A stretch of DNA of 34,768 nucleotides, taken from the sequence record DRR723986_7321. One strand, 5' to 3'. Both the position numbers and the translations under genes were made by a program. Below the pieces are notes generated by a model. The model was not told the origin of the DNA. It made no database searches and saw only the letters and a program-made list of their open reading frames with translations. Position 1 is the first letter of the stretch; each line of letters begins with the position of its first letter. This document shows, in pieces, positions 14,560-34,768 of the stretch.

Positions 14560-14574
14560 ACACATTCAAACGTT

Positions 14575-16920: not shown

Positions 16921-16949
16921 GGTTACTGCTCCTGTTTTCGTCATTCATC

Positions 16950-16983: not shown

Positions 16984-16993
16984 AGGGTAAAAA

Positions 16994-19138
16994 TCAAGCC
17001 AGATTGTCTTCCAGCTTTTTGCCTTGTGCAGCCAATTCAACCAGCATGCTGGCGGGCTTGAAACGCTCGCCGTACTTGGCGGCCAGTTCTTCACAACGCT
17101 TCACGAACTGGGGCAGACCCTTGGCGTTGATGAACTGCAACATGCCGCCTGTGAATGGCGCAAAACCCAATCCAAAAATTGAACCGATGTTGCCATCCGC
17201 TACGGAGCGCAACACTTTTTCCTGCAAGCAGCGTGCGGCTTCATTGGCCTGTATGTACATCAGGCGGTCCTGGATTTCTTGTGAGCTTGGCTGCTCTTTG
17301 GCCAGCGGGAATTCTTCGCTCAACCCCTTCCACAAAGTTTTGCCTGCGGGGGTGTAGTCGTAGAAGCCTTTGCCGTCTTTCTTGCCGATACGGCCATGCT
17401 TTTCAGCCACAGTAATCAGTGTTTTGTAACCTGGATGATCGGGGAAGGTTTGGCCCGCGGCTTCCATGTCTTTTTTGGTTTGCTTCATGATCAGCAAACT
17501 CAAGCTGAGTGACACTTCGTCGTACAAAGCCAAAGGTGGCATGGGCATGCCGGCTTCCAGACCTGCCATTTCGATGGAACGTGGGTGAACACCCTCGCCT
17601 ACCATGGCGGCTGCTTCCATCAGGAAGGTGCCAAAAACACGGCTGGTGAAGAAGCCGCGACTGTCGTTGACCACAATCGGTGTTTTGCCGATTTGCTGAA
17701 CATAGTCAAAGCCCTTGGCCAGAGTTTCATCGTCGGTCTTTTCACCCATGATGATTTCAACCAGCGGCATTTTGTCCACGGGGCTGAAGAAGTGCAAACC
17801 GATGAACTGGTTGGGGCGCTTGGACGCCTCGGCCAAGCCAGTGATTGGCAAAGTCGAGGTATTGGATGCATACACGGCTGTTGCAGGAATAACCGCTTCT
17901 GCCTTGGCAGTGACATCGGCTTTCACGGCACGGTCTTCGAACACCGCTTCAATCACCAAATCTGCACCTTCCAATTTGGAGTAGTCGGTGGTGGCAGTAA
18001 TCAGGTTCAGCAGTGCCTCTTTCTTTTCTGGGGTGCTGCGCTTTTTGGCAATGGCTTTGTCCAGCAGGTTGGTGCTGTAGGCTTTGCCCTTGTCCGCGCC
18101 TTCTTGCGTGGCGTCGATCAACACCACTTCAATGCCCACTTTCGCAGACACGTAAGCAATGCCCGCACCCATCATGCCTGCCCCCAGCACGCCAATTTTC
18201 TTGACCTTGCTTTTTGCGGGTGCGCTTGGGCGGCTTTGGCCTTTCTTGATGCTGTTGAGCTGATACCACAGCGTGTTCATCATGTTCTTGCTTTCTTGCG
18301 ACAACACACAAGCAGCAAAGTAACGGCTTTCCACTTTCAAACCGGTGTCGATGTCAGTAATGCCGCCTTCGAACACGCAGCTGGCAATGTGGGTCAGCGC
18401 GGGGTAGTTGCCGAATGCCTTGGCGTTGGCCATGCTCGGTGCAATCGCCCAAATCTGTGCAATGGCTGGGTGCTTGGAATCACCACCGGGAAATTTGAAG
18501 CCTTTCACGTCCCATGGCTGCAAGGCCTTGGGGTTGGCGAGGGCCCAGGCTTTGGCCTTGGCAATCATGTCTTCAATCGTGTCTGCGGTGTCTTGAATGA
18601 TGCCTTTTTTCACCGCCTGCTCAACGCGCAGTTCCGTGCCTTGGGTCATCATTTCCAGCGCACCCTGAATGCCAATCATGCGGGGCAAACGCTGTGTGCC
18701 ACCGCCACCGGGCAACAAGCCCAACTTCACTTCGGGCAAACCGAATTTGGCTTTGGGGTTGTTCAATGCGATGCGGTGGTTACAGGCCATGGCCAGTTCC
18801 AGACCGCCACCCAGCGCGGTGCCGTTCAAGGCACACACAATGGGCTTTTCGCACTTTTCCATGCGACGCAACAGGGTTTTGAAGGCTTCTGCCAAATCAA
18901 AGGCCTGCTGTGGGTCGGTAATTTTGTACACCGTGTCCAGGTCAGCGCCAGCCAGGAATTCTGGCTTGCCGGAAGTCAGCACCACACCCTTCACAGCTGC
19001 GTCGGTTTCGATGCGGGTCAGGGCTTCCGCAAACGGGCCCATCAATTCTTCATTCAATACGTTCATGGAACGGCCGGGCATGTCGAGCGTGACTACCGCG
19101 ATGCCATCCTGACCGAGTTCAAATTTCACTGCACTCAT
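16994..19138 (-). CDS. fadB: Fatty-acid oxidation complex alpha subunit (enoyl-CoA hydratase / 3-hydroxyacyl-CoA dehydrogenase, FadB/FadJ family)
   Basis: Crotonase motifs FLAGADL, ALGGGLE, GLPEVKLGLLPGGGGTQRL; NAD-binding GVLGAGMMGAG, IEAVFED, SNTSTLPI, GLHFFSP; GAAGGAG RBS before ATG 19138. Confidence 0.93.
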   Translation of the reverse strand: MSAVKFELGQDGIAVVTLDMPGRSMNVLNEELMGPFAEALTRIETDAAVKGVVLTSGKPEFLAGADLDTVYKITDPQQAFDLAEAFKTLLRRMEKCEKPIVCALNGTALGGGLELAMACNHRIALNNPKAKFGLPEVKLGLLPGGGGTQRLPRMIGIQGALEMMTQGTELRVEQAVKKGIIQDTADTIEDMIAKAKAWALANPKALQPWDVKGFKFPGGDSKHPAIAQIWAIAPSMANAKAFGNYPALTHIASCVFEGGITDIDTGLKVESRYFAACVLSQESKNMMNTLWYQLNSIKKGQSRPSAPAKSKVKKIGVLGAGMMGAGIAYVSAKVGIEVVLIDATQEGADKGKAYSTNLLDKAIAKKRSTPEKKEALLNLITATTDYSKLEGADLVIEAVFEDRAVKADVTAKAEAVIPATAVYASNTSTLPITGLAEASKRPNQFIGLHFFSPVDKMPLVEIIMGEKTDDETLAKGFDYVQQIGKTPIVVNDSRGFFTSRVFGTFLMEAAAMVGEGVHPRSIEMAGLEAGMPMPPLALYDEVSLSLSLLIMKQTKKDMEAAGQTFPDHPGYKTLITVAEKHGRIGKKDGKGFYDYTPAGKTLWKGLSEEFPLAKEQPSSQEIQDRLMYIQANEAARCLQEKVLRSVADGNIGSIFGLGFAPFTGGMLQFINAKGLPQFVKRCEELAAKYGERFKPASMLVELAAQGKKLEDNLA

Positions 19139-19159
19139 TGTTGTTTCTCCTTCGGCCAA

Positions 19160-20365
19160 TTAAATGCGTTCGATGATGGTGGCGATACCCATGCCGCCGC
19201 CCACACACAGTGTGGCCAGACCCAGGGTTTTGTCTTGCCGCTCAAGTTCATCGAGCAAAGTGCCCAAAATAATTGCGCCAGTTGCGCCCAGTGGGTGGCC
19301 CATGGCGATAGATCCGCCGTTCACGTTCACGCGGTCCAGGCTGACACCCAGGTTGCGTGCGGTTTGCATGGGTACCACAGCGAAGGCTTCATTGATTTCC
19401 CACAGGTCGATGTCAGAAGCTTTCAAGCCAGCTTTCTTCAAAGCCTTCTGACAAGCGGGAGTTGGGCCAGTCAGCATGATGGTGGGCTCAGAACCGATGA
19501 CAGCGGCCGCGCGAATGCGGGCGCGTGGCTTCAAACCAGCCTTGCGACCGGCTTCTTCACTACCCACCAATACCAAGGCAGCGCCGTCTACGATGCCGGA
19601 GCTGTTACCCGCATGGTGAATATGGTTGATGCTTTCAACGGTGGTGTACTTGCGCAGGGCGGTTGCGTTAAAGCCCATGCTGCCCATCATTGCAAATGAG
19701 GGCTGCAAAGTGGCCAGGCTTTCCACGGTAGCATTGCCACGAATGAATTCGTCATGATCCAGCATGATCAAGCCATTCAGGTCCTTCACAGGAACGCGGC
19801 TCTTGTTGAAACGGCCTTCAGCCTGAGCCTTGGCGGCACGGCGCTGGCTTTCCACGGCGTAGGTGTCTACATCGGTGCGGCTGAAGCCTTCCAGCGTACC
19901 GATCAGGTCAGCAGAAATACCCTGCGGGATAAAGCCCAGCTTGTCGTTGATACGGGGGTCCATGAACCAGGCACCGCCATCGCTGCCCATGGTCCAGCGG
20001 CTCATGCTTTCTACGCCACCCGCAACCACCATGTCTTCAAGACCGCTGCCCACCTTGGCTGCAGCCAGGTTGACTGATTCCAAACCGGAAGCGCAGAAAC
20101 GCGATTGGGTTACACCCGCAACAGTTTCAGCCCAACCAGCATCCAGTACTGCAGTGCGCGCAATGTCAGCGCCCTGCTCGCCCACTGGGGTTACGCAACC
20201 CAGCACCACGTCGTCAACCAGGCTGGTGTCCAGATCATTGCGTTGCTGCAAAGCGGTCAGCAGGTTATTCAACAACCAAACTGGTGTGGCCTGGTGCAGG
20301 CTGCCGTCTTTTTTACCTTTGCCCCGTGGGGTTCTTACTGCGTCAAATATCAGTGCCGATGGCAT
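19160..20365 (-). CDS. fadA: Acetyl-CoA C-acyltransferase (thiolase)
   Basis: RFCASG catalytic Cys, [23 protein letters not shown]. Confidence 0.93.
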
Positions 20366-21322: not shown

Positions 21323-22612
21323 ATGTCAGCGAATATTGAACCATCCCACTGTGCATTATCCAACGCCAGCCTGTGGCAGCGCCTGCAACACCAAGCCACG
21401 GCCCCCTCAATTGCAGGGGGCGCTCTACGGGCCAACAGCCCATCCAGTCATCACCTGCCCAGCGTGAACCCGACAGGTAAAACATGGAGTGAGTTCACCC
21501 AGTCAAAAATTGCACACCAGCCGTATGTGCAGCAGCTCAATGAATCCATCAAAAGCGTACGCGAGTTTATTCAACAACACGCCGCCCATGGACCTCAAAC
21601 ACAAAAGGCATTGGGCAAGATTCAAGATTTCGCAGCCACCAAAATCAATTGCCGCCCTGCGTCACTCACGCCGCTCATGGTCAATGAAAACAGACGCAAC
21701 CTTTGGTTGATTGCACAACAGCTTCAAAACGAATCCATCCCGCTTGCGCAACGCATCGGGCTTGCCTTGACGCTTGCGGAGGGCCTGGATGTCTGTGCTG
21801 AAGGGGTTAGCCTCAACATATTGAGCTGTGCCAGCGAACTGATTAATCCACAGCAGGGGCTTGCAGGCTTGATCATTCACATCAAAAACCAGCTAATCGA
21901 TCAGCAGTTGTTGCAACTGGTGAGGTACATCGACAACAAGCAATTAAGTCCGGGGCAGGCCAAAGCACTGGAGATTCATCATGTGCAAGCCCTGAAAAAC
22001 CACGTGGCCAACCAATGGGGGTTGACTGTTGTTTCCGACCGCTATGCGACCGAGACGTACCAACAGCAAGTGGGGCCGATGGCCGCTTTGCTTTTGGAGA
22101 AAACAATCACCCCAGCCGCACTGGCCTACCTCGTGGCAGATCAAATTGGCGAAAAACTCACCGAATTCACGAGTCAAAACCTGAAGACAGGCATGGCCTG
22201 CGGAGAATTGAAAACCGAACCGCTGCGGCGACTGATGCAAGCCGAATTTGGCGCCAACATTGATCTACAACACTGCCTGCAATTCAGCGACGATTACTCG
22301 ACTGTGACGCTTCAATCCCGCCGGGCTCTGGCAAGCCACGCGATTGAGGCTTTCCAGAGAATCGGGCTACTGCCTGCAGATGCCTCACCGCGTTTCCTGC
22401 TGTCCCAACAAGAATTACCGACCCATCAAGCAATTGAGCAAACAAGTCATTTGGCGAGATATCTGGCTTCAGAGCCAGCAACCTGGGGCTCATCGCCCTG
22501 GAATACCTCTTTCTGGTTGGGACAGACTCTGCTGCATGGCTTTTCGAAAGACGATTCAGACGACGAACGCAGAAAATCAGAAAGACACCATATTGGTGCA
22601 AAAACCGCTTAA
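21323..22612 (+). CDS. Hypothetical helical protein, effector-like; possible remote NEL-type domain
   Basis: 429-aa ORF filling the space between tetR and amt; Ser/Pro/Ala-rich N-terminus; motifs DVCAEGVSL and EIHHVQALKNHVANQWGL. Confidence 0.65.
   Translation: MSANIEPSHCALSNASLWQRLQHQATAPSIAGGALRANSPSSHHLPSVNPTGKTWSEFTQSKIAHQPYVQQLNESIKSVREFIQQHAAHGPQTQKALGKIQDFAATKINCRPASLTPLMVNENRRNLWLIAQQLQNESIPLAQRIGLALTLAEGLDVCAEGVSLNILSCASELINPQQGLAGLIIHIKNQLIDQQLLQLVRYIDNKQLSPGQAKALEIHHVQALKNHVANQWGLTVVSDRYATETYQQQVGPMAALLLEKTITPAALAYLVADQIGEKLTEFTSQNLKTGMACGELKTEPLRRLMQAEFGANIDLQHCLQFSDDYSTVTLQSRRALASHAIEAFQRIGLLPADASPRFLLSQQELPTHQAIEQTSHLARYLASEPATWGSSPWNTSFWLGQTLLHGFSKDDSDDERRKSERHHIGAKTA
22584..22600. 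promoter_or_regulatory. NtrC-type binding site
   Basis: GACACCA-TAT-TGGTGCA against consensus TGCACCA-N3-TGGTGCA (12/14), upstream of an ammonium transporter. Confidence 0.65.
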
Positions 22613-22676: not shown

Positions 22677-23882
22677 ATGGAACAAATTACTCTCGCACTG
22701 GACACTCTTTTTGTGCTTCTAGGCGCCATCATGGTGCTTGCAATGCACGCCGGTTTTGCATTTCTGGAAGTGGGCACAGTGCGCCACAAAAACCAGGTCA
22801 ATGCACTTGTCAAAATTCTGGCTGATTTTTCCGTCAGCACCATCAGCTACTTCTTCATCGGTTATGCCATTGCTTATGGCGTGGGTTTTTACGAACCCGC
22901 CACCGTGCTCAATGAGGGCAACGGCTATTCACTGGTGAAGTTCTTTTTTCTGCTGACCTTCGCAGCGGCCATTCCCGCGATTGTGTCGGGTGGCATTGCC
23001 GAACGCGCGCGCTTTGTGCCCCAATTGGTGGCTACCGCGGCGTTGGTGGGTTTGGTTTACCCTGTGTTTGAAGGCATGGTCTGGAATGGCAACTACGGCT
23101 TTCAGGAATGGCTGATTGCCAGCTTTGGTGCCCCCTTCATGGATTTCGCGGGCAGCGTGGTGGTTCACGCCGTGGGTGGCTGGATCGCTTTGGCTGCCGT
23201 GTTGCTGCTGGGCTCACGCCGTGGCCGCTACACCAAAGACGGACGCATCAGCTCGCACCCGCCGTCATCCATCCCCTTCCTTGCACTGGGCAGCTGGGTG
23301 CTGGCAGTAGGTTGGTTCGGTTTTAACGTGATGAGCGCCCAGAAAATTGAAGGCATTTCGGGCCTGGTGGCGGTCAACAGCCTGATGGCGATGGTGGGAG
23401 GCACTTTGGGTGCCCTGGCTGCAGGCCGCAACGACCCAGGCTTTGCCTACAACGGCCCCCTGGCTGGCTTGGTGGCCGTGTGTGCAGGCAGCAACATCAT
23501 GCACCCGCTGGGATCGCTGGCTGTGGGCTCCATCGCAGGCGTGCTATTTGTGTACATGTTCACCTTCACGCAAAACCGCTTGAAAGTTGACGATGTATTG
23601 GGTGTGTGGCCATTGCACGGCATTTGCGGCGCCTTCGGCGGTATCGCGGCAGGTGTGTTTGGCCAGCAAGCCTTGGGCGGCATGGGCGGAGTGTCGTTCA
23701 TGAGCCAATTGATCGGCACAGTGGCCGGCGTAGCATTTGCCTTGCTGGGTGGCTTTGTGGTGTATGGCGTGCTGAAAATGACAGTGGGCATTCGCCTGAA
23801 TGACGAAGAGGAATTCAACGGTGCCGACCTGACCATTCACAAGGTCAGTGCCAGCCCCGAGCGTGAAACCAGCAGTTGGTAA
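22677..23882 (+). CDS. amt: Ammonium transporter (Amt family)
   Basis: GFAFLEVG, IVSGGIAER, DFAGSVVVH, GWFGFN, DDVLGVWPLHG (both conserved His); no glnK adjacent. Confidence 0.95.
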   Translation: MEQITLALDTLFVLLGAIMVLAMHAGFAFLEVGTVRHKNQVNALVKILADFSVSTISYFFIGYAIAYGVGFYEPATVLNEGNGYSLVKFFFLLTFAAAIPAIVSGGIAERARFVPQLVATAALVGLVYPVFEGMVWNGNYGFQEWLIASFGAPFMDFAGSVVVHAVGGWIALAAVLLLGSRRGRYTKDGRISSHPPSSIPFLALGSWVLAVGWFGFNVMSAQKIEGISGLVAVNSLMAMVGGTLGALAAGRNDPGFAYNGPLAGLVAVCAGSNIMHPLGSLAVGSIAGVLFVYMFTFTQNRLKVDDVLGVWPLHGICGAFGGIAAGVFGQQALGGMGGVSFMSQLIGTVAGVAFALLGGFVVYGVLKMTVGIRLNDEEEFNGADLTIHKVSASPERETSSW

Positions 23883-23897
23883 TTCACCGGCAGATAT

Positions 23898-24599
23898 TTA
23901 TTTCGACATGATCTCCAGGGCTTCTGAATAGAAGTCCCTGCGGATCAACACAAACACAATCAGCGCACTAAAGGCCATCAGTAAACCTGGATGAATCATC
24001 CAGGTGACCGAGGCGATACCGAAGTAATAACTGCGCAACCCGCGGTTGAATTCATCACCGGCCAGGCTGTTAATGCGAGCCATGCGCAACACATAGGCCT
24101 CGTTGTATTCCTTGTCCGGATTACCGTCGGGCGCAGCCCCCACCAAAATAGTCAGCAGGTTGAACTGACGCAAACTCCACGTGAATTTAAAGTAAGCCAC
24201 CACAAACACGGTGAGCACCAGCAACACTTTGATTTCCATCAAACCGCGGCTCACCTCCCGGCTAAACGGCAAGTCACTGGTGATGTTGACCAGCTGATCC
24301 AGCGTACCCAACAGGGCGAATAAACCCGCAATGATGTAGATCGTGGTGTTGGCATAGAAGGTAACACTGTTGACCAGGTTGCCAATCAGCGCGGTATCTC
24401 CCACCCGGTTGCTGCGAGCAAGCATTTCACGCGCCCACAGTTTGCGGAACTCATGCGTTTTTTGCGCCAAACCATGACGACCGAACCGGCTGCGGCCATC
24501 GAACACATAGTTGTAACCCCGAAAGCAAATCACAAAAAATGCCACCGCGATCCAGTCGAATACGGTGAGTAGGGAAATTGCGGTTTGAACAGCCGTCAT
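23898..24599 (-). CDS. DUF599-family membrane protein
   Basis: FRKLW...M, YFKFTWSLRQFN, FNRGLRSYYF motifs; ATG 24599 forms an ATGA overlap with the stop of the upstream glycosyltransferase gene. Confidence 0.8.
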   Translation of the reverse strand: MTAVQTAISLLTVFDWIAVAFFVICFRGYNYVFDGRSRFGRHGLAQKTHEFRKLWAREMLARSNRVGDTALIGNLVNSVTFYANTTIYIIAGLFALLGTLDQLVNITSDLPFSREVSRGLMEIKVLLVLTVFVVAYFKFTWSLRQFNLLTILVGAAPDGNPDKEYNEAYVLRMARINSLAGDEFNRGLRSYYFGIASVTWMIHPGLLMAFSALIVFVLIRRDFYSEALEIMSK

Positions 24600-27500
24600 G
24601 ACGACACTCCAACAACAGAGAACAATTGACGCCAATGGTGTGCCGCTTCGGCATGGCTGAAACGGCTCGCAGAAGCAAAGGCCTTTTTGCTTAAGCCTTC
24701 ATGAAATTCGTAACTATCAAAAACAGAAAGTATTTGATCCGCGAGCGCATCTGTATCCCCAAATGGCGCTAACAAACCAGTTTCACCGTGCACGATCAAA
24801 TGCGAGGGGCCATACGGCACGTCAAAAGCAATTGCAGGGCATGCGTGGCAAAGACTTTCCATAATGGCCAGTGAGTAAGCCTCGGCCTGGCTGGTCAACA
24901 AGGACAAACCTGCACGCGTGTAATGGGCCGCAGGATCATCGGTCCACTCATTCAAACCAACATGATTCTGCAAGCCCAGCGATTCCAGCTGAGTCTTCAA
25001 ATCAGACAACAGGGAGTTTCCCGCAACCGCGAAACCGTAAAAATCAAGACGCGCCTCAGGATACTTCGCCACCACTTTGGCGAAAGCGGCGATTGCCAGG
25101 TGATGATTTTTCTCGGGGCTGTATCTGGCCATGGAAACAATTCGAAATCGGTCCCGAGTCTTGAACTCCGGAATTGAGTTTTTTATCTCACATGAATGGC
25201 CGATGGGAAATAGTTGCCCAGCCCCATATCGTGCAGTGATGTCATTCATTTGTTGATCGGTCAACGTAATGACTGCATCCGGACGCTTGATGTCGTGCAA
25301 GATATCCCTGAAATTGGAGTTGGTTGGACTCGTGGCCATATCTGCCACAGTGTGCGTATGGAGAGCGTGAATAACAGGCACCACTGCCACCTGACCTGGC
25401 GATTCCCGATGCAAGTGATCACGCGCAGTCACCGCAGGCAAGTACCAATACCGATTTTTATCAACGACCAACACATGTTTACCGCCTCGGCTCTTGAGCA
25501 TGGCTTGCAGGGCAAAAGTCAACCATTCTGACTCACTGAACCAACAGGCCAGCAGCACCCCAGTTGAATCGTACAGGCGAATATTTGACAGCTGTGGCTT
25601 GTTGTCAATTCGCTTGTAAAGCTTCACAAAAGCCAGTGAGCCACCTGGGCGCAAGTAGTGTTCATGATTCACCGCGCCAGTTGAATCCAGGTACTGAATG
25701 CAACTTAAAAATCCACGACTATCGTAATAATCCTTTCTGAACTTCACCCCGTCAGAAAAATGATTGATGTGAATCAGCGCGTCGTTCACAGGATTGCGAA
25801 CCACGTACATCAGCAGTTGTCCTTGCGGGCTCGTGACGCGAATATCCCGCCTGTCGGCGACCAGCTGACTGCGAAGCATTGGATTGTCAAAGAGCGATTG
25901 TCCGGTATTCAGTCGCGCCGGGACCTCTTCCGCATCTTGAAAATAATCATGAACAGACCGACACACCGAGGACTCAGGCAAAGCCTTGTTGGCCACCAAC
26001 TTCTCGATTGACTCCTGCAATCGTGGGTTATAGCGACAGGTCAACAACACTGGTCGCACATGCATCTCTCGCTCAAAAACCCGATATCGAAGCAGCGCTG
26101 CATTCTCAACGCCAGAACGCTGAAAACCAAAGTTCTGATTGAGAAACCAAAAAGTAGTCTCCTCAATTTTGGCGTTCAAGGAAACTTTTGGTCTGGCCTC
26201 TTTTTGACCGGGGTTCAACTCGCCCTGCATCAAAAATTTTCGGTAAGCCACCAGGCCCGATACATAGTGCTCCACATCGTCAATGCGCACCCGGTAGGCA
26301 TGATGCCGAATAAAGAATGAACCGTTCAGCGTGTCCGGTTTCGCAAAATACATGGCCCATTCAGGCCAAAAATAACCGGTGGTCAAATAATTGGCGCGCC
26401 AGTGCAAGGCTCGGTAAAACTTCTCGGTGTCCACCTGTGCATACAGGTCAGCAAACTCCGGCATGGCTTGCAAACGCGAGAGCATTTGTTGGGCGGCCAT
26501 CATCAACTCGAGCAAGGTGGGGAAAGTGGTGATGCGTGTCAGCACGAAATCCAGGTGATTCGCGAAATTGCGAATTCCAAACTCAAAGTACTCTCGCTTG
26601 GGTCGGTACAGGGTGAGCTCATTGACGCAATAGCTCATCCAGTGATCATTCGCTTTCCAGTGGCGAGCTTCAATAAAGTATTCGAATGCCAACTCCACCG
26701 CTTGAAGCCACCTGGATCGACGGGTGATTTTGTACAAACGCATAAGCGCGAATGCAGCTTCCCCGTCATAGTAAATAATCCTGAAGTGTTCCTTGATGGA
26801 AAGATCAGGGTAGTTAAGCACATGCACAAAGCGGCGACTGGCTGGATTGAGCATGGCCACAATGCCTTGGGCCAGCTGCTCCATCAATTCAATGTATTCG
26901 GTGGTGCCTGTCAGTTCGGTGTACTTCGCCAGCGCGAGAATACATACAGCATTCCCACCCAACTTGATTTCATTGCCGGTATCGACCAGAAAAGCCGCCT
27001 GAATGCCGCCACTTAACGGCATGCGCTTGATCAACTCCTGCGTCAAACAGCGCAGCGAGCGATCAATCGCAGACTTTAAAAATGTACTTTGCGTGACTTC
27101 CCACGCCTCAATCATTGCGTAGGTGGAACTTGCATGACGAAGCGTGTTGTAGGTTGGAATTTCCTTGTTGAAGCATGGAAACAATCCGTATACAAACCGG
27201 CCGCTGTCTTTGACTTGACGGGCGAGAAACTCACTGGCATTCAATACCAGCGATGTGCTTGCTTGCACATCCAGATCGGGTAACTTACGCCGTCCAGTTG
27301 CTACACCGAAAGGTTCAAGTGCATGCACCATTTCGTCGGCACCCAGGTAAGCGCCTTGTGTAGAAAACAGGTAGACAGGCTCTTGATCACCATGAGTCAA
27401 TACAAATGACTGGCCATACTTTTTTCGAGCATACTTTTCAAAGTTGCCAACATTCAGTTGGGCAAACTCCTCTTCTGATCCACCATAGAGCATGGCATTG

Positions 27501-27868
27501 CCGTTGAGTTCACCCCACAGAAAACTTTGCTTGAACTGCGCATCCAGTGCGAGACCGTAACTGAAGTAATTTCGTTTTGTTGTCGCAAGCAGAGCCTTCA
27601 GTTCGGCCCAATTGCTTGTCTGAACTTCGCATACCCAGTCCACACGCACATGCACACAATCCACACCTGATTGTTCAAACAGGGCAGATGCGTGTTTACT
27701 CAAGGCGCTCCAGCAGCTTTCAAAAGACTGCCCGACAAAAGTCTCTACACTGGCGCGCTCAATTCCGTTAGAACAGGACAACATCAACACGCAAGGTTCG
27801 TGATTGCCTGTTGAATACATGCTTGCAAGGAAACTACCCAGTTTTTCAAGTCTGACAGGATTAATCAT
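24596..27868 (-). CDS. Two-module protein: N-terminal ~550-aa alpha/alpha-barrel-like domain plus C-terminal GT4 glycosyltransferase of SdgA/SdgB/GtfA/TagE type
   Basis: C-half (~26160-24596): SGVENAALLR, DYYDSRGFLSC, ARYSPEKN, E-x7-E motif TSQAEAYSLAIME, FDVPYGP..LIVHGETG. N-half: YNTLRHAS, KLGGNA, YYDGEAAFAL, DHW, RIDDVEH. No signal peptide. Confidence 0.85.
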   Translation of the reverse strand: MINPVRLEKLGSFLASMYSTGNHEPCVLMLSCSNGIERASVETFVGQSFESCWSALSKHASALFEQSGVDCVHVRVDWVCEVQTSNWAELKALLATTKRNYFSYGLALDAQFKQSFLWGELNGNAMLYGGSEEEFAQLNVGNFEKYARKKYGQSFVLTHGDQEPVYLFSTQGAYLGADEMVHALEPFGVATGRRKLPDLDVQASTSLVLNASEFLARQVKDSGRFVYGLFPCFNKEIPTYNTLRHASSTYAMIEAWEVTQSTFLKSAIDRSLRCLTQELIKRMPLSGGIQAAFLVDTGNEIKLGGNAVCILALAKYTELTGTTEYIELMEQLAQGIVAMLNPASRRFVHVLNYPDLSIKEHFRIIYYDGEAAFALMRLYKITRRSRWLQAVELAFEYFIEARHWKANDHWMSYCVNELTLYRPKREYFEFGIRNFANHLDFVLTRITTFPTLLELMMAAQQMLSRLQAMPEFADLYAQVDTEKFYRALHWRANYLTTGYFWPEWAMYFAKPDTLNGSFFIRHHAYRVRIDDVEHYVSGLVAYRKFLMQGELNPGQKEARPKVSLNAKIEETTFWFLNQNFGFQRSGVENAALLRYRVFEREMHVRPVLLTCRYNPRLQESIEKLVANKALPESSVCRSVHDYFQDAEEVPARLNTGQSLFDNPMLRSQLVADRRDIRVTSPQGQLLMYVVRNPVNDALIHINHFSDGVKFRKDYYDSRGFLSCIQYLDSTGAVNHEHYLRPGGSLAFVKLYKRIDNKPQLSNIRLYDSTGVLLACWFSESEWLTFALQAMLKSRGGKHVLVVDKNRYWYLPAVTARDHLHRESPGQVAVVPVIHALHTHTVADMATSPTNSNFRDILHDIKRPDAVITLTDQQMNDITARYGAGQLFPIGHSCEIKNSIPEFKTRDRFRIVSMARYSPEKNHHLAIAAFAKVVAKYPEARLDFYGFAVAGNSLLSDLKTQLESLGLQNHVGLNEWTDDPAAHYTRAGLSLLTSQAEAYSLAIMESLCHACPAIAFDVPYGPSHLIVHGETGLLAPFGDTDALADQILSVFDSYEFHEGLSKKAFASASRFSHAEAAHHWRQLFSVVGVSS

Positions 27869-27880
27869 GTTGCCTTGTGA

Positions 27881-30800
27881 TCAGTCAAAAGAGAATTGAT
27901 AAAGCACATCGACTGCATTGTCTGCGCCAGCCCGCGCAATAAAGCTGAGCCGCCTGGAATACTGGTAATTCAATTTCAGGATACTGGCTGCCGTGGTTAC
28001 CGATTGATCGAAACTCAGATAGACACGATCGCTAAATCGTTTTCCCAAGGACACAATTCGTTGTGAGAGCAGTGGGTCATCGGAACCGATCACATTTGCA
28101 GAGGCATCGGCGCCGGGCGCAATGGCCACTTTGCTGCCCACGGCGCGGGAGTCTGCCGCAGTCAGCGAACCCGTGCTGAGACTCAGATCATCAATCCCGA
28201 TCGATTTCGCAATCTTGCGCGTGGTGCTCTCGTCCTCATCACCAAAAATTGCCGCGGCGGCCGTGAGCAACAAGGTGGAATCACGGTCTGCCGAGCCACT
28301 ACCTCGCCCAAGAATCATCCAGGACAACTTCTCTGAATCAGGCACTGCCGGCTCGCTGACCAGACTGACCTTGGGTCGCTGCGCCGTACCTGTCACTTCA
28401 ACACCCGCTTCAACCGCCACGCCTTTTCGCACCGCGCGAACATTCAAACCCGGATTGTCCAGAGGCCCCTGGAAATTGACCACACCTCGTTCGATGGACA
28501 GATCTTGCCCATATGCTCGGTAGGTACCACTCACGGTTTGAATGGTCCCGGTTGCACTCAAACGCCTTCCGGATCGGCGCTGCCCACTGCCTCCAACACC
28601 CTCCAGCATCACCAAACGCAAACCACCCTCAAGCCGGCTTCGCAAGCCTTCAGCATTCACGTAAAACCGTTCGCCCAAGTTGGCGCGCAATTGCAGGTCT
28701 ATCGGCAAACCTTGTCCGGCCAGTTCACTGCGCCCCTGAATGAAGACATCATCACCCAAAGTTTGAGGACCACTCTCGGGCATCTCAAAATATGCCCCCA
28801 AAGTATCCACCTCGCCCCGAATTTTGAGTGGCTGTCCATCCACGCTGGGTTGCTGCACAGTCACGCTGGAATTCACCATCATCCATCGGTCAGGTCGCTG
28901 AAGCAGGGGTACCCTGTCCATGGTCAGTCTTATCTCACCATTCAAACCGGTCAGGTTCCAAACACCCTGTGCTTGCACTTTGCCGTTGCCTTGAATCAGT
29001 GGCCCCAACTCCTCAATGTAACGGCGGGGTGGGCGGCGGTTGTAAACCGTGAATTCGAAGGTGTCGATACTGGCCTTGTCGGTCGTGAAGTCAACCACCA
29101 CATTGCCATCTTCAAGTCGAACACCCTGATCAAGCTGGAACACATCCAGGTCCAGTGCGAACAAACGCCCCTGAACATCCGGATTGTTCGCAGTACCAGC
29201 AATCGCCATTGCAACCTGACCGGTGCCGCTGGTTCTAACCCCACCGCTAATCATGGGGCCAAGCCAATTCAATTCAGTGAATCCCGCTGCCACCGAGCCC
29301 TGCATTGCTGCGTCACCGGCAATGCCCCAGGCTTTGGTTTGCGGATTCTGTTGAACCGGCAGTTTCAGATTTGCAGTCACCGCACCAAAGTCATCGGCAA
29401 GGATATTCAAATCAACACTGGCAGCCTCTCGATTAAAATCAAGATTTGCAGTCATGGTCCGAATGTTCACATCCACCTGTGAATCCGAAAGTACTTGCAG
29501 ACCACCGGACACATGACGAATATCCACATGCCCATCCACCTTGTTGGGATTGGCCACGTAGTTCCAGTTCACCTTGGCGACCAGGTCTTTAGGCTCTACG
29601 GTCAGTTGCTGGCGCAGTATCGGTGACATACGTGGAAAATAAAACTGGGGCATTTCACCCTCGACCCGTATCTCGCGATCTGCGACACGAAGGATCCGGT
29701 TGTTTAACACCGAAGTGTCTTCGCCTTTCAGCACAAAATCTGCAAGCTCCACAAACCCGGGTGCCACCACAAGCGGTGCCGGCGCCTGAAGTGAAAAGCT
29801 GCGAGCCGGCAACCACATGCCCTCCACCTTCAATTGCGCAAGCTGCCCATTCCAGCCAGAAACTGATTTCGGTTTCTCCAGAACGCCAAGCCCGCCCGAC
29901 AGCGCAAACTCTCCCTTCAACGGTCGCAAGCGGCTAAATGGCTGCAATCCACTGGAAAAAACACCCCGTAGTTGATGTTGACTTCGAATACCGCGAAGTG
30001 TGAGCTTCAGTTCATTCAAGACATTGGTGGCCGCATCTGGCACCTTCACTTTGCTCGCCACAATGTCACCAACCCAAGGTGAGCCAGGCGCCGAACCAAG
30101 ATTGAACTGTCCGGACACAGTCTCAATTTGAATGGTGTCATCCAGCTTCAACTGGCGCACATCCACATCACCCTCTCCCGAGAAGTTTCCGTCAAATCCG
30201 CGCAGTTTTCCTCTCAACCTTGCTGTTCCGGAAAGCTCCATTTGAACCAGTTTTCCGAGGCGTGGCAGCTCATCCAGATTCACATCCAGATCAACAAAAT
30301 CAGACTGAGCCCCGTAACTCCCGTTTGCTTTCACAGTGTTGCCCACCACGTCCAGGTCCAGCAGCACATTAGTCAAGCGCGACATACCCCCTGTTGCCTT
30401 GGCAAGCAGTTTAAGCGGGGCATTGGCCAAACGGGAGTTCATCAGATCCACAATGATTTCACCCACAGGATCAACAGCCCCCGCTTTTCCGCTCTGAATC
30501 AAAACACCAGTGAACGAGGCCGTGCCGTTCAGGTCGCCCTGCAAGAATGGACCGGCATCCGGAACGTAGTTGGCCGGGTTGATTTTCCTCAACTCAATCT
30601 GCGTATCAAGCGGTACTTTGTCCACCAGGTCGATCCGCAACTTGCCAAGCAGCTCCGCTTGCCGATCACGGACCTGTAGGCGCTCCACCCGAACCTGTGT
30701 GCCGGTTTTGGTGCCTTGAATCATGGACGTCAATGCGAGTCGCTGTGGCAACCTGGCCAATACCGAGGCATCTATATTGTTTGTCTTGATGTCAAAGTTC

Positions 30801-31933
30801 ATATCGCCCGCGAGAACATCCAGCGAGTCATCCTGATGATCAAGCTGCCTGGGTGCACGCCACTGAATCGTGGCGTTCGCGCTGCCAGCCTGACGTTTTC
30901 CATCGGCCAGGCGGAGTTCATCCACCCACAAATCAAGTTGTTCAGGACGTTGTTCCTTCAGACTCAAATTAAAGCGCGCCTGAATCAAAGACAGTGGCAA
31001 CCCGCCAGACTGGACGGTTGAGGGTCGGGCATTTCGAATGGAAAAATTGCCAGTGCTTTCAGAAAAATCGTCGTTGGGTTCTACAGTTGCAACAATCGCT
31101 AGCGAGGCGTGCGGCGCCCCTTCCAGCCAATTAGACGGATCAAAATTTTCCGCGTTTAAACGCACAGTTTCAAAGGGGTTTGAACCCAGCAAGGTCAACA
31201 CAGCATTGGCCTGCACATTCTGGGTTTGATCCGGTTTGCTGATGTTTTCCCCTTTCGCATTCAGGGCAAGCTCCAGGCGCTCAATTGACCCCGTGGCTGC
31301 CAACTGCGCATTGAGCAACAGATCATCCAATTCGCGACGTGCATTCACTTCGCCAGTGATCTGGTAAGGCTTCGCCAATGTGATTTCAACTGAAGAGTCG
31401 ATCTGTGTATCACGCACATTCAAGGAAAAATGGTGGACGCTCAACTGTTCCGATTGAATTGAAACCTTTGCACTCAGGCTCTTCAATTCTTCACCATTGA
31501 TCAACAATTGCTGCACCTGAAGTTGATGCAAATCAAGATCGACTGGCACGCTAATTCTGTCTGGAATCACCAGGGGGTCGTCATTCTCCGTGGGCGGTGA
31601 ATCAATGCGGACAACCCTTGCCGACAAAGTGTTGATTCGAATCATTTGATCAAGCAGCCTGGACCAGTCCACCGCAATTCGAATTTGCTCCGCCTCGACC
31701 TGGGTATTTTCTTGTTGCCAACGAACAAACTCGAGATCAAACCCCCGCCACAAAGTACCCTGGAATCTGCCGAATTCGAGCTGCTGATCAGAATTGCTGT
31801 TCACCCAGTCCTGCGCCTGAGCGGCAGCAAATTGAAGGCCTTGCTCCGTCTGGGTCACCCATACAACTCCAGCGGTCACCAGCATCATCGCTGACAACAC
31901 CAAGGAACATAAAACAATCACCCCACGCCTCAA
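27881..31933 (-). CDS. tamB: Translocation and assembly module subunit TamB
   Basis: 1350 aa, N-terminal anchor, beta-rich body, DUF490-type C-terminus (GTYRAYGQDLSIERG, GPLDNPGLNVRAVR, AGVEVTGTAQRPKVSLVSEP, LSWMILG); TTGA overlap with tamA. Confidence 0.92.
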   Translation of the reverse strand: MRRGVIVLCSLVLSAMMLVTAGVVWVTQTEQGLQFAAAQAQDWVNSNSDQQLEFGRFQGTLWRGFDLEFVRWQQENTQVEAEQIRIAVDWSRLLDQMIRINTLSARVVRIDSPPTENDDPLVIPDRISVPVDLDLHQLQVQQLLINGEELKSLSAKVSIQSEQLSVHHFSLNVRDTQIDSSVEITLAKPYQITGEVNARRELDDLLLNAQLAATGSIERLELALNAKGENISKPDQTQNVQANAVLTLLGSNPFETVRLNAENFDPSNWLEGAPHASLAIVATVEPNDDFSESTGNFSIRNARPSTVQSGGLPLSLIQARFNLSLKEQRPEQLDLWVDELRLADGKRQAGSANATIQWRAPRQLDHQDDSLDVLAGDMNFDIKTNNIDASVLARLPQRLALTSMIQGTKTGTQVRVERLQVRDRQAELLGKLRIDLVDKVPLDTQIELRKINPANYVPDAGPFLQGDLNGTASFTGVLIQSGKAGAVDPVGEIIVDLMNSRLANAPLKLLAKATGGMSRLTNVLLDLDVVGNTVKANGSYGAQSDFVDLDVNLDELPRLGKLVQMELSGTARLRGKLRGFDGNFSGEGDVDVRQLKLDDTIQIETVSGQFNLGSAPGSPWVGDIVASKVKVPDAATNVLNELKLTLRGIRSQHQLRGVFSSGLQPFSRLRPLKGEFALSGGLGVLEKPKSVSGWNGQLAQLKVEGMWLPARSFSLQAPAPLVVAPGFVELADFVLKGEDTSVLNNRILRVADREIRVEGEMPQFYFPRMSPILRQQLTVEPKDLVAKVNWNYVANPNKVDGHVDIRHVSGGLQVLSDSQVDVNIRTMTANLDFNREAASVDLNILADDFGAVTANLKLPVQQNPQTKAWGIAGDAAMQGSVAAGFTELNWLGPMISGGVRTSGTGQVAMAIAGTANNPDVQGRLFALDLDVFQLDQGVRLEDGNVVVDFTTDKASIDTFEFTVYNRRPPRRYIEELGPLIQGNGKVQAQGVWNLTGLNGEIRLTMDRVPLLQRPDRWMMVNSSVTVQQPSVDGQPLKIRGEVDTLGAYFEMPESGPQTLGDDVFIQGRSELAGQGLPIDLQLRANLGERFYVNAEGLRSRLEGGLRLVMLEGVGGSGQRRSGRRLSATGTIQTVSGTYRAYGQDLSIERGVVNFQGPLDNPGLNVRAVRKGVAVEAGVEVTGTAQRPKVSLVSEPAVPDSEKLSWMILGRGSGSADRDSTLLLTAAAAIFGDEDESTTRKIAKSIGIDDLSLSTGSLTAADSRAVGSKVAIAPGADASANVIGSDDPLLSQRIVSLGKRFSDRVYLSFDQSVTTAASILKLNYQYSRRLSFIARAGADNAVDVLYQFSFD

Positions 31934-33726
31934 AATGCCACCCCCAGCGCAAAGTGAATTCTCAAATTGGCCTGGTCTGCCGCTTTCGCAATATCGAAAG
32001 CGATAGGCCCGGCCGGAGTTTTGTACCGCACCCCAACACCCACCGCAGGTTTGGGATCAAGGTCACCCCAGTTGTCAGACACATCACCGACATCCGTAAA
32101 AACTGCAGCCCCCAGGGGCCCACCTTCAAACCACCGCGTGTACTCGAGGCTACCGATCATCAGGCGACGACCGCCCACCAAAACCCCCTGATCAATAACA
32201 CCCAAATCGAGAAAATCAAACCCACGAAGACTGTTGGTCCCGCCCGCGCGAAACAGATAGTCTTGTGGAATATCCCGGCGTGCACTGGCCACCACCGTAC
32301 CAACCTCAAATCGGGCAGAAAACAGATTTTCTCGGGAAGGAGACCAAAACTTCTGCACTCGCCCGTACAAACGCACAAAATCCTGATCAGAGGCAAACTG
32401 TTCCGCAGCAACAGCCAGTTGGCCAAAAGCGATGTATCCCTCAGAGGGATTCAATCGGTCGTCCACTGCATTTCTTGTCCAGGATGAACTGGCAACCAGC
32501 GCCTGGGTTTGTCCAAAATTGATGCCAAGCGCCCTTCGCTCTTCCAACTGAAAATTCAGACCCAAACGGTAATCATTGATGCCTTTGTTGAATTCCCTGA
32601 TCACGCCTACAGAGGAACGATCCACCTCAAGGTTTGATATTTCCTGGTGATCAACTGCAACCCCAACCGAATCGGTAATACCGCGGGTTGACGGTGGAAG
32701 GAATACATCTGCGTAGGCCGACTGGCGCTTTTGTTCCAAGCGAACCCCTGTAACCAGCGAGTAAGCCCGATCAAACAGATTATTGAATTGATACGTGGCC
32801 TCAGTTCGAAACCCGGTGTTGGAGCTGTAACCCGCACCCAAACCAAGACGTTTGCTGTCACTTTCCATCACGGTGACTTCAATTGGGACGTTCACCGGCT
32901 GCCGATCATCCGCATCAATTTTCACATCAACGGCTGAAAAGTAGGTTGTTCCCTGAAGATCCGCCAACAGAGTCAACAGACGTTCTTGTTCATATCGATC
33001 GCCGGGACGAATGCTGTTGTAACGGGAAACCAGATCCTTGGGGTATTTGTTCAAACCTTCAATTTGCAACTCGCCAAAGGTAAAGACCGGACCACTGTCA
33101 TAGACCACGCTCAGGGCGACTGTATGATTCTCTGGATCGACATCGGCCAGGCTTTCCGAAAGTGTTGCCGCAGCAAAATCCTTGGCCAGCAAGTCTCGCA
33201 GAAGATTGTCTTTACTGGCACTCCAATCCGCTTGATTAAAGGGTTGATTGACACCCAACAACCACAAGGTCTTCAAACGCTCACGGCGTTGCGCGAATTC
33301 ATCTTGGTTGATTTCACCATCGAATTGAATATCCACTGACACAATTTTACTTTGTACCCCCGGCTCAATTTTGATGTTCAGCGGCGGTGCCGCTTCTTCA
33401 GGAACGGTTTCATCGACTATCCGCTGAATGGAGGGCGCGAAATAGCCCTCAGTGCCAAGCGCATCTCGAATGGCGGGCCTCAATCTTCTGAAAAGTTGCC
33501 ATGCATCGCCATTGTCGTTGACTTGGGCAGTCGAACGAATTTGCAACGTAGACTGCTCAATCAAATCCTTGAATTCCTCAGGCACCTCATAATTCACAGT
33601 GGGAAGATCGAACTCAGTGACTGTATCTTGGGCGTACACCACGCCCGTGTGAAGGGTTATTGCACTGAAAACGGCACAAAGCCAGATAAAAGCCTTGCTT
33701 GTGTGGTTACTCAAAAACTTCTTCAT
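31930..33726 (-). CDS. tamA: TamA (Omp85-family outer-membrane insertase)
   Basis: Signal peptide, POTRA-type region (GYFAP, DSGPVFTFG), FRAGGTNSLRGF lid motif, GVRYKTPAGPIAFDIA, C-terminal Phe; likely start ATG 33726. Confidence 0.92.
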   Translation of the reverse strand: MKKFLSNHTSKAFIWLCAVFSAITLHTGVVYAQDTVTEFDLPTVNYEVPEEFKDLIEQSTLQIRSTAQVNDNGDAWQLFRRLRPAIRDALGTEGYFAPSIQRIVDETVPEEAAPPLNIKIEPGVQSKIVSVDIQFDGEINQDEFAQRRERLKTLWLLGVNQPFNQADWSASKDNLLRDLLAKDFAAATLSESLADVDPENHTVALSVVYDSGPVFTFGELQIEGLNKYPKDLVSRYNSIRPGDRYEQERLLTLLADLQGTTYFSAVDVKIDADDRQPVNVPIEVTVMESDSKRLGLGAGYSSNTGFRTEATYQFNNLFDRAYSLVTGVRLEQKRQSAYADVFLPPSTRGITDSVGVAVDHQEISNLEVDRSSVGVIREFNKGINDYRLGLNFQLEERRALGINFGQTQALVASSSWTRNAVDDRLNPSEGYIAFGQLAVAAEQFASDQDFVRLYGRVQKFWSPSRENLFSARFEVGTVVASARRDIPQDYLFRAGGTNSLRGFDFLDLGVIDQGVLVGGRRLMIGSLEYTRWFEGGPLGAAVFTDVGDVSDNWGDLDPKPAVGVGVRYKTPAGPIAFDIAKAADQANLRIHFALGVAF

Positions 33727-33789
33727 GCTTTCCCGGATAGATTGGTCATTTCTTCCTGAGTTGACACTTTGACACCCCGCCACGGCGTC

Positions 33790-34243
33790 TTGAATTGGCC
33801 AAGCTCAAATTGCCGATAAAAATACACAAATTTACCTTGTGACCGGTTCAACTCTCATCTGTATCAACCAGGGGCTCAAGAATTACAGTGCTACATACGA
33901 ATTCTTACCAAACACCCCCCCACTCAAATGAGTCCCCCTTTAAGACCATGAAGATCTGAAAATCTCGATTGAATCGGATTATTTTCGATGTCGATCAATC
34001 GATGATATGAAAAAAATTTCAAATCGATTATTGCAGTAAATAAACTAAAAACCACCACCAATAAACACTTGTTAATTTTAAATGATGAAATTGTTTCACA
34101 ATTGGAATTAACTCAGCCAGCAAGAGGAAAATTTTCTTGCAGATATCTGTTTTCTTATGAATCCGATTAAATCCCTTGTGAGTAAAACGCTTATAGCAGT
34201 GAACTTGCCTAACCAACTCTCTAGCCCCAAGGAAATGTGAATC
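33790..34243. promoter_or_regulatory. AT-rich divergent control region between tamA and the SD-repeat gene
   Basis: Clearly more AT-rich than the flanking genes, no credible ORF, clustered TCGAT/ATCGA motifs at ~33965-34030. Confidence 0.5.
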
Positions 34244-34768
34244 ATGGAAAACGCCAACCCGAATGTTGGAATTATCAAATCGCCAGCCGGCCTTCAGGTC
34301 GAACGCGGCGGCAAGATCGTTGAACTAAGTCAAGGCGATGCCTTGAAATGGAACGACGTAGTGACCAATACAGGCAATCAAACTGCCGAGGTTTTGATGC
34401 CTGCCATGTCCGCTGGACACGGCGACACACTTTTGCAACTGGCTCCCAATGCGTCAGCCAAGCTGGAACAGATTACCTCCACCGTTGCAGACGGCGCGAC
34501 TCGAACAGAGGTTGTGGCACTGAGTGAAGGCGTAGAGCTCTATGACATCGACAATGAAGTGAGTTCAGCAATCCTGACACCTTACGAAGGCACCATGTCT
34601 GGCCTGGTGGGTGCCGGCTTGCTGGCTGGCGGTAGCGCCGGTGCTGGCGTTGGTGCAGCCATTGGTGGCGCTGCGCTTGGCGCGATCGCCCTGAGCGACG
34701 ATGGCGACGACACGGTCATCACAGTTGACCCCAACGACGACAGCGATTCCGACTCTGACAGCGATTCC
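34244..34768 (+). CDS. Partial surface/secreted protein: retention-module-like N-terminus, Gly/Ala hydrophobic segment, then Ser-Asp repeats; truncated by the window edge
   Basis: Not in the ORF track; 175 open codons from ATG 34244 (AAGGA upstream): MENANPNVGIIKSPAGLQVERGGKIVELSQGDALKWNDVVTNTG...LLQLAPNASAKL...GLVGAGLLAGGSAGAGVGAAIGGAALGAIALSDDGDDTVITVDPNDDSDSDSDSDS. Confidence 0.85.
   Translation, partial: MENANPNVGIIKSPAGLQVERGGKIVELSQGDALKWNDVVTNTGNQTAEVLMPAMSAGHGDTLLQLAPNASAKLEQITSTVADGATRTEVVALSEGVELYDIDNEVSSAILTPYEGTMSGLVGAGLLAGGSAGAGVGAAIGGAALGAIALSDDGDDTVITVDPNDDSDSDSDSDS
34739..34768 (+). repeat. Start of an SD dipeptide repeat with 18-bp periodicity
   Basis: GAC AGC GAT TCC GAC TCT GAC AGC GAT TCC = DSDSDSDSDS, continuing to the last base. 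Confidence 0.75.

Follow-up and report, generated by a model that had tools for sequence, protein, structure and literature searches.

A candidate SdgB-like glycosylation system for Ser-Asp repeat proteins in Limnobacter, with relatives in other Proteobacteria

The stretch of DNA analysed here, DRR723986_7321 (34,768 nucleotides, hereafter the window), belongs to Limnobacter (Burkholderiales, Betaproteobacteria), a genus of freshwater and marine habitats, and one end of it probably encodes a system in which a Ser-Asp (SD) repeat protein is O-glycosylated in the cytoplasm, before its export, by an enzyme related to SdgB of Staphylococcus aureus. The enzyme, of 1090 residues according to the translation of its open reading frame (ORF), is encoded at 24596-27868 on the minus strand and joins an N-terminal module to a C-terminal glycosyltransferase (GT) half; its putative substrate is the product of a divergent gene on the plus strand, the 5' part of which (34244-34768) is still open at the window end. 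A first-pass annotation, made from the letters of this DNA alone, had described a tamA-tamB-GT-DUF599 group divergent from an ORF that runs into a (DS)n tract, in a probable betaproteobacterium; the layout is as claimed, with the ORF ending in DSDSDSDSDS, and near-identical contigs are from Limnobacter. The glycosylation of SD repeats has been regarded as a staphylococcal speciality, which shapes immune recognition and shields adhesins from proteases; in the staphylococcal Clf and Sdr adhesins the sugar-coated SD tract forms an extended stalk.

In the mechanism proposed here, the product of the 24596-27868 gene would be a cytoplasmic, two-module enzyme without signal peptide, and its C-terminal half would act as a retaining GT of family GT4, of the SdgA/SdgB type. 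From a uridine diphosphate (UDP)-sugar, it would attach the sugar in O-linkage to serines of the (DS)n tract in the protein encoded from 34244, before this protein is exported; the donor is probably UDP-N-acetylglucosamine (UDP-GlcNAc), the sugar not being readable from sequence. The sugar-coated acidic tract would then form an extended and protease-resistant stalk. The N-terminal module may recruit or hold the repeat, or couple its modification to export, which is the weakest step of the proposal; it may equally well have a second enzymatic activity. That the GT modifies the adjoining SD protein before export had already been suggested in the first-pass annotation; homology, conserved residues and gene linkage support it, and the glycosylation itself is inferred from these, as are its acceptor and timing, the sugar and the role as a stalk.

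Kinship of the glycosyltransferase half

The GT half (residues 573-1083, encoded at 24620-26152 on the minus strand, a DUF1975-type insertion included) was assigned by NCBIfam, PDB and reciprocal searches. The NCBIfam model of SdgB matched it with an E value of 9.5e-61 and 206 bits over model positions 2-493 of 496, and the SdgA model matched the 1090-residue protein with 2.9e-48 and 165 bits; the next families were GtfA (1.5e-19, 70 bits) and EpsE (62 bits), and GT4 models of the exopolysaccharide (EPS) or lipopolysaccharide (LPS) type matched the C-terminal Rossmann domain alone. Among the PDB entries, SdgB (7ec1) aligned residues 574-1083 with its residues 4-494 (E 5.4e-52, 180 bits), and weaker matches were obtained with Gtf1 (7e-17, 64 bits) and TarM (6e-15, 57 bits). 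The likeness to SdgA and SdgB suggested in the first-pass annotation is real, and in the comparison with SdgA, SdgB, GtfA and the teichoic-acid GTs, SdgB is the best match and a full-length one; judged by its sequence, the Limnobacter GT half is clearly no LPS, EPS or teichoic-acid enzyme. Six further proteins in which the N-terminal domain is joined to a GT were compared with NCBIfam, and SdgB or SdgA was the top family in all six (164-280 bits, next family at most 103).

Kinship was judged by reciprocal searches, in place of a tree with GtfA and TarM as outgroups. When the GT half was compared by tblastn with 72,556 plasmid records, the top match was an S. aureus gene adjoining sdrE/sdrD (28.1% identity, 99% coverage), which itself scores 971 bits on the SdgB model, where the curated cut-off is 800 bits; a bona fide SdgA scores 891 bits on its NCBIfam model. 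The S. aureus SdgB gene, searched in turn into the nearest genome compared (G001), found the 1090-residue enzyme with 9.2e-53 and 31% identity, and the next GT4 with 9e-6. The Limnobacter GT half and bona fide S. aureus SdgB are each other's best match, at 28-31% identity; nevertheless, the scores of the Limnobacter enzyme with SdgB and SdgA do not reach the curated cut-off of 800 bits, and because of this difference (206 against 800 bits) it is considered a distant relative of SdgA/SdgB and no orthologue.

Residues were also compared, the equivalences being mapped by hand on a single pairwise alignment with PDB 7ec1, for the residues named in PMC8561734. Of the 11 donor and catalytic positions so named, 9 are identical (SdgB/Limnobacter G15/G586, H246/H834, R329/R915, K334/K920, E406/E996, S409/S999, L410/L1000, A411/A1001 and E414/E1004) and two are substituted (G407A and F408Y); Y358/Y944 is also retained. 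As far as these named positions go, the donor residues that are kept give no discrimination among sugars. The four motifs listed in the first-pass annotation are all found in the translation, SGVENAALLR at 585-594, DYYDSRGFLSC at 713-723, ARYSPEK at 914-920 and the E-x7-E motif as E996-x7-E1004. In the groove that binds the SD peptide, which is formed by the DUF1975 insertion (R101, Y124, N126, R132, K134 and R137 in that source), three of the six residues are identical (R101/R677, N126/N702 and K134/K709), R137/K712 is a conservative change, and Y124H (H700) and R132G (G707) are alterations. PMC8561734 gives DSD as the minimal substrate of SdgB. A group of enzymes from Citrobacter, Pantoea and Comamonas is shorter by about 40 residues in this groove region.

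Compared with SdgB and SdgA and their Clf/Sdr adhesins (NF047881 and NF047880; PDB 7ec1 and 7vfl), the Limnobacter enzyme has in common the GT4 family with its GT-B fold, the DUF1975 insertion, a full-length colinear alignment, the reciprocal best match, the donor and catalytic residues kept, and the absence of a signal peptide; its gene also lies beside a long (DS)n gene built of 18-bp repeat units. In contrast, it bears an N-terminal domain of about 560 residues that is absent in staphylococci, it stands as one enzyme instead of the SdgB plus SdgA pair, its host is Gram-negative, and its partner is no LPXTG/YSIRK MSCRAMM, this partner being in other Proteobacteria an adhesin of the LapA/BapA type, exported by a type I secretion system (T1SS); the low identity, the score below the cut-off and the two altered groove residues out of six add to these differences. 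The GtfA/GtfB enzymes of the serine-rich repeat adhesins, which are linked to the accessory Sec system (TIGR02918; PDB 5e9t and 4pqg), resemble the proposed system in a cytoplasmic glycosylation of O-GlcNAc type before export and in a GT4 enzyme bearing DUF1975; however, the 70 bits of the Limnobacter enzyme on the GtfA model (cut-off 574.6) are below its SdgB score, and the PDB match was limited to 7e-17. No GtfB-like partner was seen, although partner genes and SecA2/SecY2 were not searched for. The wall-teichoic-acid enzymes TarM and TagE (PDB 4x6l) share the GT4 plus DUF1975 architecture, and the Klebsiella aerogenes homologue is auto-annotated as tagE; in the PDB search, however, TarM reached 57 bits as compared with 180 for SdgB, and synthesis of wall teichoic acid is not known from Proteobacteria.

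Repeat proteins and their linkage to the enzyme

The 5' part of the SD gene (P0002) encodes, in this order, an N-terminal domain of about 118 residues, a hydrophobic stretch rich in Gly and Ala, placed by eye at residues 119-150 (nt 34598-34693), an acidic segment SDDGDD...DD and the start of the (DS)n tract, of which the first five units lie at 34739-34768 (plus strand, repeat scan); it matched no Pfam or NCBIfam family. Contig C11 of G001 is 99% identical to the window, and there the ORF runs on for 745 residues; its 40 DS units stem from 13.6 copies of an 18-bp unit, with 98% matches, and past the tract come acidic repeats rich in Gly, Pro and Ala, within which the contig stops. Taken from this contig, the tract of the window strain would also comprise 40 units. 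The complete orthologue of L. alexandrii (1028 residues, L139:514-3600), which had no Pfam match, shows the same N-terminal domain of about 118 residues and Gly/Ala-rich hydrophobic stretch, followed by 59 DS units according to the repeat scan and by about 700 residues of acidic repeats. Other Limnobacter have 10-59 DS units. For the first-pass annotation, a tract ending after a few units would have refuted its reading; the tract is long in the near-identical contig of G001, with 40 units, and several Limnobacter have 40-59. Apart from this gene, Limnobacter genomes contain 4-6 paralogues of the N-terminal domain with its Gly/Ala-rich stretch (in G001 on contigs C9, C14, C4 and C44); one of them, L139:3717-4544, lies directly downstream of the SD gene and has an acidic Pro/Glu/Asn-rich tail without DS tract.

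Linkage was examined by pattern scans of genome and metagenome contigs, for the metagenomes with 12 aligned GT halves, and by searches of public records. Within Limnobacter, the block formed by the SD gene and the divergent tamA-tamB-enzyme-DUF599 genes is found in 8 of 9 genome loci and in 5 of 6 metagenome loci; at the sixth metagenome locus (L060), 410 bp are visible upstream of the enzyme gene. In the ninth genome locus (L013), a 47%-identical enzyme, which has neither tamAB nor DUF599 beside it, is located 5.7 kb from a protein of 1136 residues that shares the N-terminal domain and the hydrophobic stretch of the SD protein. The loci that share the tamAB block represent one lineage, in which conserved synteny alone proves little; L013, with its different surroundings, is more informative.

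Outside Limnobacter, the two-domain enzyme is found in Lap/T1SS adhesin operons beside (DS)n tracts of up to more than 1,400 residues, in Enterobacterales contigs, in K. aerogenes and on a plasmid of Escherichia coli. At locus L077, the genes malT-malP-malQ are followed by the enzyme, LapG, LapD and a protein with more than 1360 residues of (DS)n, in which a TAAG site and the retention module of LapA (126 bits against a cut-off of 50) were recognised; L100 shows the same gene order with a protein of 732 residues and about 30 DS units, followed by TolC and a C39-type ATP-binding cassette (ABC) exporter, and L084 also has this order, its contig stopping 50 nt past the retention module. In K. aerogenes NCTC10006 (L142) and on the plasmid of E. 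coli ET210 (L141), (DS)n tracts of 1446 and 1318 residues, respectively, are followed by TolC, a T1SS ABC protein, HlyD and the enzyme, for which SdgB is again the top family. For the giant (DS)n frames of these two records (L142:1-8809 and L141:1-5458), the annotation gives a 'hypothetical protein' on the opposite strand or else four 'clumping factor' fragments, and it names the enzyme tagE or glycosyltransferase; this mis-annotation of giant (DS)n genes, on the wrong strand or as 'clumping factor' fragments, is probably systematic and deserves to be flagged.

Two other loci vary the theme. L082:4375-9466 encodes a protein in which the N-terminal domain (31% identity) is joined to an Sdg-like GT with the highest Sdg score of all (278-280 bits); a YheC/D-type ATP-grasp gene follows the enzyme, proteins with leucine-rich repeats are encoded upstream, and at the C-terminal end of a convergent ORF, (DT)73 is followed by a hydrophobic segment and the basic tail KRRQKK. 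L061:8396-15963 encodes a fusion of 1051 residues between a CapA/MslH-like domain and an SdgB-like GT (219 bits), without the N-terminal domain, 3.7 kb from a protein that opens with a BapA prefix domain and carries a hydrophobic stretch and DS/DA repeats. Because MslH epimerises peptides, the CapA-like domains of Asp-X systems may act on the repeat peptide. Linkage of GT homologues to (DS)n or (DT)n genes, the lack of which would have counted against the first-pass annotation, is seen beyond the genus in no fewer than three additional gene settings.

A tract was counted if 30 residues contained 10 or more D, 10 or more X and a D+X total of 25 or more, within open segments of at least 80 residues. 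Asp-[S/A/T] tracts were detected in 37 of 49 genome loci with the N-terminal domain, and in 9 of 16 metagenome loci with this domain (250 kb) versus 1 of 64 GT4 loci without it (631 kb); the sole positive control locus is L061, which has the closest GT-only relative. Among the 25 loci with GT fusions the tract was DS in 15, DT in 1 and DA in 1, and among 31 loci in which the N-terminal domain is fused to a Mur ligase it was DA in 20 and DS in 2, that is, the type of tract follows the fused catalytic domain. Since many of the loci are related to one another, the counts are descriptive and do not amount to a test of significance. In a class-wide sample of 401 genomes, of which 400 were scored (G249 was left out), the GT half found the enzyme at E<=1e-40 in a single genome, G001 itself; because of this rarity, the sampling was unable to test co-occurrence.

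Judging from their domains and neighbours, the partners outside Limnobacter are T1SS adhesins of the LapA/BapA type. In L077, L100, L084 and L017 the repeat protein begins with a retention module (100-126 bits, cut-off 50) and contains a TAAG site, and genes for LapG and LapD flank its own; the NCBIfam search detected this module in the L077, L100 and L017 partners, and the L061 protein is of the BapA type. The Limnobacter SD protein matches neither N-terminal family, as P0002 and the L. alexandrii orthologue gave no NCBIfam match to the retention module (NF033682) or to the BapA prefix; no LapG (PF06035) was found in G001, a genome that is 100% complete, and no T1SS genes are present on the contigs that carry the Limnobacter SD gene and its paralogues. 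LapB-like ABC genes of about 30% identity lie on other contigs. Of the RTX/T1SS genes that the first-pass annotation had advised to look for, TolC, ABC and HlyD genes are present in other lineages, as are LapG/LapD genes; for the Limnobacter protein none was found. A LapA-like N-terminus of the SD protein, noticed by eye, was dropped after BLASTP against the L077 retention module gave no significant match and NCBIfam gave none.

In the window, tamB (27881-31933, minus strand) shares the strand of the enzyme gene and ends 12 bp upstream of it; it is preceded by tamA (31930-33783, minus strand), both identified by Pfam and NCBIfam; a divergent intergenic region of 460 bp (33784-34243) separates tamA from the SD gene, and a consensus scan of this region found no sigma-70-like sites, an outcome that is uninformative. 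The gene for the DUF599 membrane protein (23898-24635, minus strand, Pfam 1.5e-59) overlaps the 3' end of the enzyme gene. The adjacency of tamAB to the enzyme is found in Limnobacter only, being absent in L013, L077, L100, L141 and L142, and DUF599 lies downstream of the enzyme in Limnobacter only; because they accompany the enzyme in this genus alone, tamAB and DUF599 are probably bystanders outside the system. Several lineages have, adjoining genes with the N-terminal domain, a gene for a putative HExxH metalloprotease (MXAN_6640-like, 55 bits, below the cut-off), as in L013:13304-14323 and in L014, L015, L017, L042, L043 and L070; it is not present in the window.

The N-terminal module and the weighing of other readings

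The N-terminal module (residues 1 to about 560, encoded at 26189-27868 on the minus strand) represents an undescribed family, and residues 1-560 matched no Pfam or NCBIfam family. AlphaFold, with 27 homologues as input, confidently (pLDDT 90.9) predicts an alpha/beta subdomain (1-190) followed by an (alpha/alpha)6 barrel (195-551). The barrel resembles cellobiose 2-epimerase and GH76 with VIA Z scores of 24-26 at 8-12% identity, in agreement with Foldseek; the fold searches returned only generic six-hairpin barrels at 8-14% identity, and LanC-like proteins were not among the matches listed. The predicted barrel fold is generic and says nothing about function. Neighbours in the ESM Atlas are unnamed or labelled 'Mur ligase'. 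In alignment A1, with 27 sequences, mean column identity is 60%. The family is marked by a module of about 550 residues in which over 100 columns are invariant, by its place on the N-terminal side of a fused catalytic domain, and by an Asp-X repeat gene in the vicinity.

The Limnobacter domain is 50-60% identical to those of the Mur-ligase fusions, which occur in Alpha-, Beta- and Gammaproteobacteria, while the GT half keeps 26-38% identity; the N-terminal half is the most conserved part of the enzyme and the part that tracks Asp-X repeat genes, irrespective of the catalytic domain to which it is joined. Some of the Mur-ligase fusions add CapA, VanY, PBP5-like or beta-lactamase-like domains. 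Long (DA)n tracts, the longest of 445 units, are encoded no more than 10 kb away from the fusion genes (L019-L053 in general), and T1SS genes are in most cases present as well. At L053:1468-13120, from Agrobacterium, the order is OEP, a BapA-prefix-like protein (its N-terminus recognised by tblastn likeness only) with a hydrophobic stretch and (DA)445, ABC, HlyD and the fusion, whose ligase half, the one such half searched, is MurF-like with 262 bits on the MurF equivalog. The occurrence of MurF-like fusions beside (DA)n suggests a peptide decoration of Asp side chains. Further architectures were noted: in Limnobacter sp. 130 (L012:10001-14824) an orthologue of about 1608 residues has a CapA domain (PF09587) inserted between the N-terminal domain and the GT half. 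In a Methylobacter metagenome-assembled genome (L017:4172-17889), LapG-like and LapD-like genes accompany an 863-residue retention-module protein with (SPT)n, (DA)130 and (DS)80, next to which are encoded a fusion of the N-terminal domain with an S-adenosylmethionine-dependent methyltransferase (1110 residues, the last 350 or so of them unassigned), a separate MurF-like protein, the HExxH protein (MXAN_6640-like) and a LanM-dehydratase-like DUF4135 protein; it could be read as a multi-enzyme version of an Asp-X system.

A broader proposal, more tentative and on balance rather doubtful, is that the N-terminal module defines a hitherto undescribed, modular system for the post-translational modification of the Asp-X dipeptide-repeat stalks, made by ribosomes, of secreted adhesins, of which the Limnobacter locus would be one member. 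By engaging either the (D-X)n tract or the complex that exports it, the module would offer the tract to catalytic domains that can replace one another: for (DS)n and (DT)n this would be an SdgB-like GT, and for (DA)n a MurF-like amide ligase, the latter with CapA/MslH-like or VanY/PBP5/beta-lactamase-like domains as options; methyltransferase and LanM-dehydratase-like partners occur in Methylobacter. The ligase would attach D-Ala-D-Ala-like peptides to Asp carboxylates, in imitation of the stem peptide in peptidoglycan, and the decorated stalk might even be cross-linked to the wall.

Three other readings of the locus have to be considered. The best placed of them, although unlikely, is that the enzyme glycosylates, or helps to assemble, something other than a protein, for instance an exopolysaccharide, a lipid-linked glycan or a polymer akin to teichoic acid, with the barrel and the GT working jointly on the glycan and the repeat adhesins being merely co-regulated neighbours that share a surface or biofilm programme. 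The nearest folds of the barrel, cellobiose/GlcNAc 2-epimerases and GH76, would suit it, as would the activity of the relatives TarM and TagE on teichoic acid, the tagE annotation in K. aerogenes, and the sister fusions with MurF-like and CapA-like domains, which are known in the synthesis of cell-wall and capsule polymers. However, the score of SdgB is 206 bits against 57-70 for TarM and GtfA, the type of tract follows the fused catalytic domain, the enzyme is found within adhesin/T1SS operons and not in polysaccharide clusters, and a fold likeness at 8-12% identity is functionally uninformative.

A further alternative, less probable still, keeps the same protein family as the target and places the modification outside the DS tract, on Ser/Thr of the long repeats rich in Gly, Pro, Ala, Ser and Thr, or else takes the N-terminal domain as the essential part, acting in chaperoning or in coupling to export, with the GT as an accessory. 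It would accommodate the L013 partner, which is rich in S, T and G and has no DS tract, the approximately 700 residues of other acidic repeats past the tract in the Limnobacter SD protein, and the higher conservation of the N-terminal domain with respect to the GT half; on the other hand, the minimal SdgB motif is DSD, with a groove that is partly kept, and in Enterobacterales (DS)n makes up nearly all of the partner that is visible. Lastly, a chance neighbourhood, with a gene order inherited in one genus and an unrelated GT substrate, would fit the restriction of tamAB-linked loci to Limnobacter and the two housekeeping genes between the pair, but it is already disfavoured and very improbable, given that the pairing recurs across gene orders and taxa and that the control loci gave 1/64.

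Several observations weigh against a cytoplasmic O-glycosylation of the DS tract by the SdgB-like enzyme. The synteny in Limnobacter is that of a single lineage, and tamAB separate the enzyme from the SD gene; the L013 partner, as mentioned, has no DS tract. The SdgB score is far under the 800-bit cut-off, and with 28-31% identity the acceptor specificity could differ; two of the six groove residues are altered. No export machinery was identified for the Limnobacter SD protein, with no LapG in G001, and the barrel of the N-terminal domain, by its likeness to sugar epimerases and hydrolases, suits a glycan-directed reading as well. Finally, L094 pairs a GT fusion with (AD)n, a repeat free of hydroxyl groups, and no tract is visible in 8 of the 25 GT-fusion loci. 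Among these tract-negative loci the view is short in L088, L089 and L070 (less than 9 kb), in L060 with its 410 bp upstream, and in L084, which ends after the retention module; L078, L088 and L091 carry T1SS ABC genes.

Novelty of the system and other genes of the window

The full-text literature searched, in which subscription journals are largely absent, yielded no paper that connects SdgA/SdgB-like enzymes, or repeats of the SD, DS or DA kind, to Gram-negative, LapA/RTX or T1SS adhesins; it also yielded no account of dipeptide (Asp-X) stalks in LapA/BapA adhesins or of an enzyme dedicated to modifying such adhesins. As the pairing is found again in Gram-negative bacteria that are not related, the locus very probably represents a genuine and hitherto undescribed system of protein glycosylation. 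Gram-negative adhesins that are glycosylated in the cytoplasm before secretion are known from HMW1C and from the heptosyltransferases TibC and Aah; these differ from the Limnobacter system in enzyme family, in linkage and in secretion route, which is two-partner secretion or that of the autotransporters. If the proposal is true, staphylococcal-type SD chemistry would operate in Gram-negative bacteria, on T1SS biofilm adhesins of the LapA/BapA type in several lineages, K. aerogenes and a large E. coli plasmid among them; it would provide the first dedicated modifying enzyme for this class of adhesins, and would imply that a sugar-coated chain passes the type I or another Gram-negative export route. 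The comparison also brings to light a large unannotated domain family, the N-terminal module, and a simple, directly testable rule by which the type of repeat corresponds to the enzyme in the fusion.

The remainder of the window contains genes of other functions. Between 1789 and 7244, on the minus strand, lie genes like those of a type II secretion system (T2SS) or of type IV pili, which encode a secretin, the platform protein T2SSF and the ATPase T2SSE, the last bearing an MshEN domain; two ORFs, 916-1785 and 4757-5614, had no Pfam match. A fatty-acid oxidation cluster occupies 11281-20365 on the minus strand and includes genes for an acyl-CoA synthetase, a family III CoA-transferase, a FadE-like acyl-CoA dehydrogenase, a FadB-like protein and a thiolase. 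On the plus strand, an ORF of 429 residues at 21323-22612, without Pfam match, precedes the gene of an ammonium transporter (22677-23882).

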